From Halarcobacter sp. (lineage in GTDB: Bacteria > Campylobacterota > Campylobacteria > Campylobacterales > Arcobacteraceae): a stretch of DNA of 64,000 nucleotides. The position numbers and the translations under genes were made by a program. The notes below the pieces were generated by a model. It was not told where the DNA came from. It worked only from the letters and a program-made list of their open reading frames with translations, and did no database searches. The DNA lies in the NCBI GenBank assembly GCA_048571215.1, contig CP182352.1, positions 960,001 through 1,024,000 of the forward strand, in the 5' to 3' direction. Shown here piece by piece: positions 3,391 through 11,587 of this stretch; position 1 is the first letter of the stretch, and the number at the start of each line of letters is the position of its first letter.

Positions 3391-4002
3391 ACTATTATCA
3401 AAATATTTGAGTGTAAATAAACTTTTACTGTACCTCTTGGCTTTGTCGACTTTCTTTTGTGAAAAAGAAAGTAGCAAAGAAACCATCCCACAGGTTTCGA
3501 AGCCGAAGGTTCCCTCGCTTATTATTTCACTTTTCTATTTTTTAAAACTCGCTAAAACGTAAGTTAGTTACGTTTTTGACACTCAGACAGTTAAAAAACT
3601 TTTGCCTGCAAGCAGGATTACATCCGAAAAGCAAAATAAACACTCGGCTTCTCAAATGCGGGAAGGTGGGATAATGACCTTTTCATTTTTTGGTACCATT
3701 TTGTTTGGATTTGTGTAATACTCAAATAGTATGAGAAAGTTCAAGGCTAGGGTATTTTAGTCCAGACTTTGTTGAAGCTGGAAGTTTTTTAATTATTTTC
3801 GGAGAAGACCGAGGACCGTTCAACTGGATAAAAGGTACTGAATGTACCTTTTAGGAAGGCGTTCCGCAGGTCAGAAGATAATTATAAAACTGGAGGGAAC
3901 TTTAGCTTCAACAACCGTCTGGCTGCTTTTTGTCTTACTTTTTACAACTAAAAAGTGAGAAAGCGGAGAGCTTTGCTCTACAAGAGGGTGTATACAATTA
4001 AA
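3391..4002. repeat. ~612-bp structured non-coding repeat, copy 1 (complete: half A + spacer + inverted half B)
   Basis: Start ACTATTATCAAAATATTTGAG recurs at 4003 and 10963; nested hairpins. Confidence 0.9.
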
Positions 4003-4340
4003 ACTATTTTCAAAATATTTGAGTGTGAATAAACTTTTACTGTACGTCTTAACTTTACCGACTTTCTTTTGTGAAAAAGAAAGTAGCAAAGAAACCATCC
4101 CACAGGTTTCAAAGCCGAAGGTTCCCTCGCTTATTATTCATCCCTTTTGAGTGCCTAAAAACTTGCTAAAACGTGAGTTAGTCACGTTTTTTTACGCTTC
4201 AAACAGTTTATTCACTTGTTTTCAAAAGAGACAAATAAACACTCGGCTTCTCAAATGCGGAAAGGTAGGAAATTGACCTTTGCATTTTTTGATACCATTT
4301 TATTTGAATTGGTGTGATACTCAACAATTATTATAAAAGT
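4003..4340. repeat. Structured repeat copy 2 (tandem; half A + spacer only)
   Basis: Highly similar to 3391-3740, e.g. GACTTTCTTTTGTGAAAAAGAAAGTAGCAAAGAAACCATCCCACAGGTTTC. Confidence 0.9.
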
Positions 4341-7217: not shown

Positions 7218-7675
7218 CACTTTTTTGCCTGCAAGCAGGATTACATATTGAAAAAAGTAAAACAAAAAGCAACCCGCAGGTTTCGAAGATGAAACTAGCC
7301 TCACTTATTATTTATTGCTTCTCAAATGCGGGAAGGTAGTATAAAGACCTTTGCATTTTTTGGTACCATTTTATTTAAGTTGGTGTTATGTTAAATTTAC
7401 ATCAGGAAGTTTGTGGCTAGTGTATTTTAGTCCAGACTTTGTTGAAGCCGAGTGCTTTGCTTTTTAAAGCGGAAAAAGCCGAAACTGTTTGAAGAAAGAA
7501 AAGTGACTAACTCACTTTTTCGAGGAGTTTTGCAGGCTAGCTTTAAAAAGTGAAGTGGGAGGGAACTTTAGCTTTAACAACGCGTCTGGTTGCTTTTTGT
7601 CTTACTTTTTACAACTAAAAAGTGAGAAAGCGGAGAACTTTGTTCTACAAGAGAGTGCATACAATTAAAACTATC
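7218..7675. repeat. Structured repeat copy 3 (eroded half A, intact half B)
   Basis: GCTTCTCAAATGCGGGAAGGT, TAGTCCAGACTTTGTTGAAGC and TTGTCTTACTTTTTACAACTAAAAAGTGAGAAAGCGGAGA shared with copy 1. Confidence 0.9.
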
Positions 7676-7717
7676 TATAAATCTATTTAACTATTTACTT
7701 AAATCATATTTTTCATA

Positions 7718-9257: not shown

Positions 9258-9353
9258 TTATTTTTTCTCAAACGCAAGCTTTATCCCTAAACAAATCAAA
9301 ACTGTACCACTTGTACGATTGATTCATTTTAGTACAGATTCATTATTCAGGAC
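9258..9353 (-). pseudogene. C-terminal remnant of a LysE/RhtB-family translocator
   Basis: VLNNESVLK*INRTSGTVLICLGIKLAFEKK*, resembling the WxNRxxGxxLIxxGxKL end of LysE proteins; 5' part replaced by the repeat. Confidence 0.55.
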
Positions 9354-9583
9354 CTTTGGATTTTTTATACCATTTTATTCGAATTGGTGTAATACTTAAA
9401 AAGCATTCTAAAAGTTTGAGGCTAGGGTATTTAGTCCAGACTTTGTTGAAGCTGGAACTTTTTCTTTTTTTATGGTGAAAAGTGAGGACGTGTTTGAGCG
9501 TAAAAAAGAGTGACTAACTCACTCTTTTAGCGAGTTGCCACCTTAAAAGAATATAAAAATTCCATATAAAATTTATAATAAAA

Positions 9584-10555
9584 TTAAATTTTTTCTGAAT
9601 CATATGGTACATTATTTTTATATACGGCATGAGCAATAACTAATAGTTTTCTCATAATTGCTACTTGTATAACTGTAGTATGTTTTCCATTTTCTTTTAG
9701 TCTATCATAAAACTTTCTTAATCTTTCGTTATTTCTTATTGATGTCATTGCTGGCATAAACAAAGTACCTCTACATATTTTTGAACCTGCTTTTGATATT
9801 TTTGTTTTTCCATTAACTGATATACCTGAACTTTTTTCTATTGGATCTAATCCTGCTAAAGATACTATCTGTTTTTGATTAGCATTTTTATATTGAATAA
9901 AATGTATAAGTAATACAATTGAAGATATTTCTCCTATACCATCAATTGTTTGCAAATTATTAAATGATTGTTGAAGTTTCTCATCTTTTTTTATGATTGA
10001 TTTTATTTTTTTGATAATTTTTTGTTCTTGTTTTTTTAAAAATTGATTTTGTAATTCAAACTCTTTTATCAAATAGCTTTTATCTTTTTTTGCTTTTAAA
10101 GCAGCTATATGGTTTTTAGTTATAACTTGTTGTTTAATAATTAATTTATATCCAGAAATAAGCTCTTTTAATTCTTCTTCTATGGTATCTACAATAGGTA
10201 TTTTAATATCTTTATCTTTAGCTGTAACAATCATTTTAGATAAAAGCTGTGCATCTTTTATATCATTTTTATTTCTATATCCCATTACTTTTGCAAAGCT
10301 AGCACTTTTTTTAGGATTTACTATAAAGCTTTTTATATTTTTGTTTGCACAAAACTGTTTTAAAAGAAATGAATAATTAGCTGTTGGTTCATAAACAAAT
10401 ACTAATTTATCTATCTCTTTTTTATAAAGCTTTTTTAGTTTAGAGTACAAACTTTTTATTCCATTTAAACTATTATCAATAATTAAATCTAAATCATTTA
10501 TTGGAATATAAACATTAATTGTTGACTTACTTACATCTAATCCGATAGAATACAT
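9584..10555 (-). CDS. IS110-family DEDD recombinase/transposase
   Basis: GLDVSK, YEPT, KNDIKDA (DEDD), SSG catalytic serine, ISKAG, VAIMRKL. Confidence 0.95.
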   Translation of the reverse strand: MYSIGLDVSKSTINVYIPINDLDLIIDNSLNGIKSLYSKLKKLYKKEIDKLVFVYEPTANYSFLLKQFCANKNIKSFIVNPKKSASFAKVMGYRNKNDIKDAQLLSKMIVTAKDKDIKIPIVDTIEEELKELISGYKLIIKQQVITKNHIAALKAKKDKSYLIKEFELQNQFLKKQEQKIIKKIKSIIKKDEKLQQSFNNLQTIDGIGEISSIVLLIHFIQYKNANQKQIVSLAGLDPIEKSSGISVNGKTKISKAGSKICRGTLFMPAMTSIRNNERLRKFYDRLKENGKHTTVIQVAIMRKLLVIAHAVYKNNVPYDSEKI

Positions 10556-10599
10556 TTCTAGAACCTTTATTTTAGGATAAAGAGTTCGTTAGGGTAGGA

Positions 10600-10805
10600 T
10601 TTCTCCTACCTGATAATTGTTATACAAACTTTAGACTTATAAAATACGAACTAGTTATAAAACTGTTCTTGTTGCCACTCAAATTTAAAGTATAACTATC
10701 AAACTCGCCATCAAGCTAATTATAAATTATTTTTTATAATTGCTTTAGTTCCGCAACGATATATTATCTTTCAAACTCTTTGGAAATATATTAACTATAT
10801 TCCCT
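10600..10805 (-). ncRNA. Predicted IS110 bridge RNA (ends approximate)
   Basis: Guide matches in canonical 5'-3' order: LTG 10758-10747, RTG 10708-10703, LDG 10678-10671, RDG 10641-10635; TATAAT just inside the element end. Confidence 0.8.
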
Positions 10806-10962
10806 TAAATGTATTATATAAGTCCCGCAACGCAATAAAAAAATAGAAAGTGGAAGGTAGCTTTGCCTTCAACAACGCGTCTGGTGGCTTTTGTTTTACT
10901 TTTACCACTAAAAGTAAAGAAAGCGAAGAACTTGTTCTTCAAGACAACTGCATACAATAAAA

Positions 10963-11579
10963 ACTATTTTCAAAGTATTTGAATGTAGTTAAACTTTAAC
11001 TGTACCTCTTGGTTTTTTCGACTTTTTTTATGAAAAAAAAGTAGCAAAAAATCACCCGCGGGGTTTCGAAGGCGGAAGCTCCCCTCGCTTATTATTTATT
11101 ATTTCTGTTTTGTCTTGTGCTTGCACTCTCTTTGAGAAAACTCACATAAAAATATGCTCCCAGCATATTTGTTCTGTTCAAACAGTTACAAAACTTCTCC
11201 GAAACAATAAATAAACACTCGGCTTCTCAAATGCGGGAAGGTGGGATAATGATCTTTGCATTTTTTGATACCATTACATTCAAAATTACTGTGATACTCA
11301 ATATCTATTTTAAAAGTTTGTGGCTAGTGTATTTAGTCCAGACTTTGTTGAAGCCGGAAGGTTTTTAATTATTTTCGGAAAAGCCTGAGAATGTTTGAGG
11401 AGAGAAAAGTGACTAGATGTCACTTTTTCGACGAGTTTCGCAAGGCAGAAAATAATTAAGAACCTGTAGGGGACTTTAGCTTTAACAACCGTCTGGTGGC
11501 TTTTCTCAAAGAGAGTGTAAACACAGGTTTTACTTTTACCACTAAAAGTAAAGGAAGCGAAGAACTTTGTTCTTCAAGA
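10963..11579. repeat. Structured repeat copy 5 (complete, tandem to copy 4)
   Basis: Collinear with 3391-4002 throughout. Confidence 0.9.
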
Positions 11580-11587
11580 TAAAAAAC

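Follow-up and report, generated by a model that had tools for sequence, protein, structure and literature searches.

An intact, recently active insertion sequence (IS) of the IS110 group, working like IS621 with a bridge RNA, very probably occupies positions 9536-10823 of the DNA analysed here, a 64,000-nucleotide (nt) window of a Halarcobacter sp. contig (CP182352.1, positions 960,001-1,024,000). Positions are given in window numbering unless marked as genome positions, and the element lies on the minus strand. The observations made here concern its sequence anatomy, its copy number and choice of insertion sites, the RNA structure and the covariation between guides and flanks, and the catalytic residues of its recombinase. 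The 3.61 Mb genome, a single contig of 28.5% G+C, contains three copies of the element (A1, the copy in the window, A2 and A3), which are 100% identical over 1,288 bp, as well as four short fragments. The terms guide, core, promoter and handshake guide follow the definitions given for IS621 in PMC11208160 (Durrant et al. 2024) and PMC11208158 (Hiraizumi et al. 2024). The element, its gene and the host DNA at its two ends are laid out as follows:

9536..10823, minus strand: whole IS110-family element, 1,288 bp with the ambiguous A-C-T counted once; the three 100%-identical copies end exactly here.
9584..10555, minus strand: recombinase gene, 323 amino acids (aa), assigned from PF01548, PF02371, NF033542 and the IS621 alignment.
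10567-10564, minus strand: AAGG ribosome-binding site upstream of the recombinase start.
9535..9542, minus strand: right-end tip and left donor, GGTGGCAA, from direct reading and comparison of copies.
10813..10818, minus strand: TATAAT box resembling a -10 element in the left-end tip, overlapping the right donor; 18 of 19 aligned relatives keep TATAAT, the exception being TATACT.
10823..10832, minus strand: left target CGTTGCGGGA, host DNA, with the left core copy CT after it at 10822-10821; the match to the left target guide is 11/12 including the core.
9528..9534, minus strand: right core copy CT (9534-9533) and right target CGCTA (9532-9528), host DNA, pairing with the right target guide.

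Both junctions can be read directly on the plus strand, as GCG-AGT-TGCCAC at the right end (9530-9541) and as TATA-AGT-CCCGCAACG at the left end (10817-10832), and deletion of 9536-10823 in silico gives GCGAGTCCCGCAACG. When the repeat sequence was compared with the genome, the flanks of A1 aligned to adjoining parts of one host repeat unit (query 460-649 to genome 969535-969349, and query 315-462 to genome 970967-970821) with a 3-nt overlap, AGT/ACT. Because the flanks adjoin and overlap by three letters within one unit, removal of the element restores the repeat, as had been claimed in a preliminary description of this DNA. The right-end tip GGTGGCA, nearly invariant among relatives, is present in all 27 copies inspected, further relatives having been located by a looser pattern. 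Non-coding stretches of 268 nt and 48 nt precede and follow the recombinase open reading frame (ORF), respectively. Among the 25 longest of 90 inverted-repeat pairs, none links both tips as terminal inverted repeats would.

The recombinase contains the domains PF01548 (DEDD_Tnp_IS110, E 4.2e-14) and PF02371 (Transposase_20, E 9.8e-18), both exceeding the Pfam cut-offs, and matches the NCBIfam model NF033542, "IS110 family RNA-guided transposase", with 170.2 bits against a cut-off of 140. A phmmer search aligned residues 4-321 with the IS621 chain of structure 8wt6 (E 1.3e-29), and the protein is also a full-length match to the ISCro4 transposase in structure 9t56 (E 7.1e-28). In the IS621 alignment, D7, E56, D98, D101 and S243 stand opposite D11, E60, D102, D105 and S241 (the 8wt6 chain numbering is offset by 2), the residues named as catalytic in the account of IS621, a protein of 326 aa (PMC11208158). 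Judged by its sequence, the protein is an intact IS110-family DEDD/serine recombinase that keeps all five catalytic residues. The preliminary description had called it apparently intact and compact; the former holds, but at 323 aa it is not specially compact beside IS621.

The 268-nt left end carries, in the order left target guide (LTG), right target guide (RTG), left donor guide (LDG) and right donor guide (RDG), four strings that match the host target or the donor ends. All four had been reported in the preliminary description and were verified at the same positions on the minus strand: CGTTGCGGAACT at 10758-10747, which is 11/12 identical to the left flank of A1 plus core (CGTTGCGGGACT); GCGAGT at 10708-10703, the RTG 6-mer; GTGGCAAC at 10678-10671, the LDG 8-mer; and TATAAGT at 10641-10635, the RDG 7-mer. 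Their limits, as revised here, are:

10747..10757, minus strand: LTG, GUUGCGGAACU, the last 9 nt being well supported.
10702..10710, minus strand: RTG, UGGCGAGU, the RTG proper being 10710-10703; from direct reading and per-position agreement.
10671..10678, minus strand: LDG, GUGGCAAC, equal to right-end positions 1-7 plus the core C; nearly invariant in relatives.
10635..10641, minus strand: RDG, UAUAAGU, complementary to A-CT-TATA of the circle junction.

In 20,000 dinucleotide-preserving shuffles of the 265-nt left end, a match as good as the 11/12 LTG match never occurred, the LDG 8-mer appeared in 10 shuffles, the RTG 6-mer in 344 and the RDG 7-mer in 2,721, so that the last is weak evidence alone. 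Two or more guide strings occurred together in 38 of the shuffles and all four in none; the four-string guide set is not due to chance, though the RDG by itself is weak. Against the three occupied sites the LTG scores 12/12, 11/12 and 11/12. The RTG UGGCGAGU pairs with ACTCGCTA through eight pairs including one G-T wobble, two more than the six pairs given earlier. Direct reading thus bears out the match of the guides to the target and the donor junction, with the exception that the LDG fits the core C and not the core T. The RDG changes together with the left end in relatives, UACGAG accompanying CGTA and CAUGAG accompanying CATA. The U-U at 10703-10702, formed by the last U of the RTG and the next nucleotide, would correspond to the handshake guide, which is located at this place in the IS621 structures (PMC11208158), and would pair with donor A7 and A6.

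When folded, the left end (minus strand) has a free energy of -58.4 kcal/mol (z -4.0 relative to shuffled sequences). A consensus fold was derived from 17 upstream regions, comprising this element, a sister element B of the same genome (four copies, with 75% DNA identity and 63% protein identity to A) and relatives in 15 further genomes of this bacterial family. It contains 40 pairs in six helices, with 98.4% of cells paired and 16 of the 40 pairs showing changes on both sides; the observed pairing values were reached by none of 500 shuffles, and sliding the partners by 1-3 columns reduced pairing to 34-41%. The LTG and RTG are located in the first internal loop, on its 5′ and 3′ sides, respectively, and the LDG and RDG in the second, one on each side. 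The structural elements are:

10782..10804, minus strand: 5′ stem-loop of the bridge RNA, from the single-sequence minimum free energy (MFE) fold.
10697..10761, minus strand: target-binding loop with basal stem UAUC (10761-10758)/GAUA (10700-10697); helix 2, with C-G to U-A covariation in three sequences.
10713..10745, minus strand: distal hairpin of the target loop, AAGCAAUUA.../...UAAUUAGCUU; helix 3, with compensatory changes in 7/9 pairs.
10620..10695, minus strand: donor-binding loop with basal stem UUAUAC (10695-10690)/GUAUAA (10625-10620); helix 4.
10648..10668, minus strand: distal hairpin of the donor loop, GAACAGU/ACUAGUUC; helix 5, with compensatory changes in 4/7 pairs.
10593..10610, minus strand: extra 3′ hairpin GGUAGGA-GAAA-UCCUACC, 3′ of the donor loop; helix 6, with compensatory changes in 3/7 pairs.
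10581..10587, minus strand: 3′ half, GAACUCU, of a possible long-range helix with partner AGAGUUU at 10779-10773, which would enclose both loops; helix 1.

The hairpin AATTATAAA/TTTATAATT, described earlier as separating the two target guides, is present in the MFE fold and is identical with consensus helix 3. Together, the protein, the guides and the fold bear out the proposal that the IS110 element is intact and has its guides laid out as in IS621, in the order LTG-RTG-LDG-RDG. The long-range helix AGAGUUU/GAACUCU is predicted in both the single and the consensus folds and is nearly invariant, with no compensatory changes; as a modelled structure it is unproven. Some 25 nt separate its end from the start codon, and such a helix could couple RNA folding to translation. 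A further helix proposed by RNAalifold, between GUGG of the LDG and part of the RDG side, is G-U rich and uses guide letters; it is probably spurious and was left out.

Of the 184 genomes of the bacterial family, 31, this one counted, carry a homologue of the recombinase (E<=1e-40). Guides and junctions were read for 19 distinct elements, the RTG being assessed in 17 because the right end was not found in two. The LTG agrees with the flank of its own element at 8.37 of 11 positions and with the flanks of other elements at 4.45 (19 elements; permutation p<=5e-5), and the RTG, with the core excluded, agrees with its own junction at 4.29 of 6 positions and with those of others at 1.56 (17 elements; permutation p<=5e-5). 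The guide-target covariation in homologues, whose absence the preliminary description had named as a refutation, was thus found across the 19 elements. Examples of the RTG reverse complement and the corresponding right junction are:

RTG reverse complement ACTCACTAT, right junction ACTCACTAA.
RTG reverse complement ACTTTTGTT, right junction ACTTTTGTG.
RTG reverse complement ACTTCAAAT, right junction ACTTCAAAG.
RTG reverse complement ACTGTTTGC, right junction ACTGTTTGA.
RTG reverse complement ACTAAATTA, right junction ACTAAATTC.
RTG reverse complement ACTTCTTTA, right junction ACTTCTTTG, element B.

Per-position agreement was counted over 30 distinct combinations of element and left flank for the LTG and over 25 events for the RTG. 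For the LTG it is 17/30 at position -1, 23-28/30 from -2 to -9, 15/30 at -10, 11/29 at -11 and 13/28 at -12; genomes with the same LTG, whose proteins are 97-99% identical, carry ACC or CCC where this genome has CGT. In the consensus fold the C at 10758, the first letter of the earlier 12-mer, pairs in the basal stem of the target loop. Because agreement falls beyond -9 and this C belongs to the basal stem, the working LTG is about 9 nt, as in IS621. The LTG had been described as long; its match to the flank stands, its unusual length does not, and a 12-nt LTG was rejected on the per-position counts. For the RTG, positions 1-8 agree in 25, 25, 25, 25, 23, 15, 17 and 22 of the 25 events, and position 9 in two.

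One relative genome (G167) carries three copies (L049, L050 and L051) that are about 99% alike and have the LTG TGATGAAAAACT versus TGAACTATAACT, at the sites CCCTGAGAAACT and AAAAATATAACT, respectively. Between L049 and L051, four of the 14 differences within the element fall within 5 nt of the LTG, and the sites differ correspondingly. On sequence comparison, this set of copies looks like natural retargeting.

These results bear on the possibility that the internal matches are subterminal repeats bound by protein, or coincidences in AT-rich DNA, with the site chosen by the protein alone. The frequency of the RDG 7-mer and the RTG 6-mer in shuffled sequences would suit such an account, as would the fact that the LDG and RDG repeat sequence from the ends of the element itself, which is what subterminal repeats would do. 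However, the sequences that the LTG and RTG match are host DNA beyond the ends of the element, and both guides vary in step with it across relatives; the four strings all lie in internal loops of a helix set backed by compensatory changes; the full set was never recovered by shuffling; and the protein family is one in which RNA guidance has been demonstrated (PMC11208160). This explanation is considered very unlikely.

The host target lies in a non-coding repeat of about 590 bp that contains several hairpins and whose copies in the window are located between genes. A 901-nt empty-site query found 58 matching pieces, and dozens of copies exist in the genome, in agreement with the earlier view that the target is part of a multicopy structured repeat. 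One unit has 36% G+C, and three units stand in a row near genome 1978918-1980671. The repeat has no ORF of at least 80 aa and no Rfam match. It is the landing pad for both IS types, A and B, and insertion into it is presumably harmless; IS110 elements are described as landing in REP-type (repetitive extragenic palindromic) repeats (PMC11208160). The repeat pieces, a hairpin beside the target and the flanks of the three copies (recombinase strand, junctions marked by a slash) are:

3409-4340, 7317-7713, 9349-9535 with 10821-10967, and 10981-11582: host repeat pieces in the window; elsewhere in the genome, for example, at 2744147-2744733.
9504..9528, minus strand: host hairpin AAAAGAGTGA-gttag-TCACTCTTTT, immediately following the right target on its 3′ side; folded as DNA at -9.0 kcal/mol (z -4.2).
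A1 flanks: CGTTGCGGG/ACT ... GGTGGCA/ACTCGC.
A2 flanks: CCTTGCGGA/ACT ... /ACTCGT.
A3 flanks: CGTTGCGGA/ACT ... /ACTCGC.

The target motif matched by the guides is TGCGGAACTCG. The flanks of the other genomic copies had been suggested as a check, and they show related targets at A2 and A3, the latter being exactly the predicted ideal (12/12 for the LTG, followed by ACTCGC). The three occupied sites have 0, 1 and 2 mismatches to the 15-nt ideal defined by the guides, and the 10 unoccupied paralogous sites have 1, 2, 3, 3, 6, 6, 6, 7, 7 and 7 mismatches to the same 15-mer, of which the genome holds no unoccupied exact copy. The element occupies the best-matching sites among the 13 paralogous repeat positions. 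The right flank was folded as DNA at 12 related insertion sites, three in this genome and nine in five others: a hairpin starts 4-12 nt after the core at all 12, its stem letters vary, and its z score is <=-2.9 at 10 sites and -1.9 and -1.2 at the other two.

The copies of A and B might alternatively have spread by duplication, gene conversion or homologous recombination among the repeats, the fit of the guides reflecting one old insertion. A single repeat family, with units that are 70-88% alike and in places arranged in tandem, does contain all the copies, the right flanks of A1 and A3 are nearly the same, copies B1 and B3 share a 60-nt left flank, and B2 and B3 share the right flank. A2, however, is located in a clearly different repeat subtype with both flanks differing, and A1 and A3 have left flanks with many differences although the element itself is 100% identical over its whole length. 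In other genomes, the same element or close kin is found at the same motif with other flanks, and the G167 copies with different LTGs stand at correspondingly different sites. Spread by repeat recombination is accordingly regarded as improbable, and repeated guided insertion as the better account of the copies.

Sister element B provides a second guide set within the same repeat. Its four copies (L004-L007) are located at genome 2826477-2827771, 2521362-2522656, 1705062-1706356 and 1467508-1468802. The scaffold of its RNA is nearly letter-for-letter that of A and the guide columns differ, with LTG UGUGGGUGGUU, RTG AAAGAAGU and RDG UACGAGU; its left end starts with CGTA, versus TATA in A. B is inserted at TGTGGGATGG-TT / TCTTTGC, in the repeat unit that also contains the A site and some 370 bp away from it. 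In another repeat copy, at genome 635849 (minus strand), GGGTGGTT-CGTA-TGCTAC is found versus GGATGGTT-TCTT-TGCTAC in other copies; this copy fits the LTG of B best and carries the first four letters of the left end of B, and it may be a footprint of B or a product of chance.

Comparison among the relatives also bears on the core. The preliminary description had named ACT as the shared core. ACT does stand at both junctions of A, but relatives with a G-CT left junction share only CT, and the 3-nt core was rejected; the core is read from these sequences as CT, the extra A being position 7, which is A in both donor and target by coincidence. The donor core of B also appears to be CT, as judged by its RDG and LDG. 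Of the 22 unoccupied paralogous sites of B, counted by eye, 15 read ...TT-TCTTTGCTAC, six carry a T-run and one is odd, with none having only two Ts; from these readings the target core of B is TT. In each of the four B copies, the left junction reads TT and the right one CT. Similarly, six of the 19 elements (B and five relatives) have a letter other than C at the core place of the left junction, and CT is read at the right junction of every one of the 17 elements whose right end was located. For IS621, cleavage of the top strands 3′ of the core, and their exchange as the first step, are reported (PMC11208158). The left/right asymmetry is the pattern that exchange of the top strand only, followed by replication, would leave, and it is treated as a lead; it agrees with the "top-strand insertion" model as presented in bioRxiv 10.1101/2025.10.25.684509 and with the copy-and-paste model outlined in bioRxiv 10.64898/2026.08.31.748434. 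It is possible, although we would not call it probable, that the clade offers natural genome-level evidence on top-strand exchange at mismatched cores, on retargeting bursts that affect the LTG only, and on A and B splitting one repeat as separate landing pads.

The mechanism proposed for the element follows IS621 in its transcription, RNA binding, circular intermediate and chemistry. The 268-nt left end would be transcribed, probably from the TATAAT box at its tip, into a bridge RNA composed of a 5′ stem-loop and two internal loops, one binding the target and the other the donor. The target loop would present the LTG (G)UUGCGGAACU on its 5′ side and the RTG UGGCGAGU on its 3′ side, and the donor loop the LDG GUGGCAAC and the RDG UAUAAGU. 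The 323-aa recombinase would bind this RNA, the target loop pairing with both strands of the host site TGCGGA-CT-CGCTA and the donor loop with the joined ends GTGGCAA-CT-TATA of the excised form, and strands would be exchanged at the CT core, the preferred site adjoining a hairpin inside the non-coding repeat. The right end-left end (RE-LE) circle junction is predicted to read GGTGGCAA-CT-TATATAAT. The TATAAT box is a candidate promoter of the bridge RNA because of the analogy with IS621, for which a promoter rebuilt across the joined ends is described (PMC11208160).

Several points weigh against this interpretation. The relatives used for covariation are kin, so that the permutation p-values overstate their independence, although the pattern is plain by eye. 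A scan for the sigma-70 consensus gave no -35/-10 pair at the left end (seven promoter-like sites against 9.5 expected), and no Rfam family was identified on the RNA, either in the whole window at gathering scores or around the element at E up to 10, where the three matches obtained were at chance level and lay off the bridge RNA. No RNA run containing the stretch is listed, and transcription is argued by analogy with IS621. Neither a circle junction nor an empty-site joint was detected in four sequence runs, all consisting of assembled contigs only; two of these runs contain the element in a 99%-alike copy that is flanked by other DNA. A1 and A3 are located in similar repeat copies, and recombination between repeats is possible for that pair. 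Finally, the U after the core guide of the RDG could pair with the element's own donor A7, and this pairing may be in the same register as one reported to have hindered strand exchange in IS621 (PMC11208158).

Two further observations concern the distribution of the element. The contigs with the 99%-alike copy (window 9525-10829) have word depths of 1152.8 (run X3) and 219.9 (run X7), the long contigs of the same runs having depths of about 4-38; such high values, which are not copy numbers, may reflect many copies of the element in those organisms. In addition, a relic of about 70 nt at genome 267732-267803 is 76% like the left-end tip (the 5′ stem-loop and the start of the target loop), and a DNA search found no recombinase gene there.

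The element is a well-resolved natural IS110 example from a low-GC family, of a kind known since its description in 2024, and it leaves the knowledge of the mechanism unchanged. Its clade forms a ready series of about 19 scaffolds with different guides, including A and B as a pair from the same genome, and this series could help to define guide-length rules for the clade (about 9 nt for the LTG and 8 nt, tolerating wobble, for the RTG) and to test the tolerance of core mismatches. A literature search found no paper on IS110 elements in Arcobacter. In elements of the IS1111 group, the guide RNA is encoded on the downstream side of the recombinase gene. The upstream position found here places the element in the IS110 group and not in IS1111, although the element shares the recombinase family and the RNA-guided logic with IS1111-group elements with seekRNA, as named in the review PMC13604230.

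The closest parallel is IS621 of E. coli, an IS110-group element for which a 177-nt bridge RNA and the structures 8wt6-8wt9 are described (PMC11208160, PMC11208158). Both recombinases have the same two domains, the same catalytic residues and nearly equal sizes (323 versus 326 aa), and in both elements the RNA is located in the left end upstream of the gene, where a 5′ stem-loop precedes two internal loops bearing the guides in the order LTG-RTG-LDG-RDG. The LTG equals the top strand and is about 9 nt long, the RTG is complementary to the top strand, the core is CT, a U-U follows the RTG at the place of the handshake guide, a -10 box is positioned at the left-end tip, and the target is a repeated, hairpin-bearing host element. 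There are also differences from IS621: the two proteins share only distant similarity (E 1.3e-29), the family of the host is low in GC (28.5%), the LDG has no match to the core T, and the RNA carries an extra conserved 3′ hairpin and possibly a long-range helix closing it as a whole. The RTG has 8 nt (A7, CT and five more) versus 4 nt in wild-type IS621, and some orthologues are described as having longer RTGs (PMC11208160). The ISCro4 transposase (PDB 9t56), compared by protein sequence alone, is likewise a full-length match. With respect to the target, the element resembles ISPpu10 of Pseudomonas putida, whose insertions, according to bioRxiv 10.64898/2026.03.19.712850, all lie in copies of one conserved intergenic sequence with a stem-loop beside the guide-matched site. 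The ISPpu10 stem-loop is presented there as a GC-rich 5′ extension shown to add specificity, whereas the hairpin that adjoins the target at the 12 related sites here is AT-rich, stands 3′ of the site and has a putative role only.

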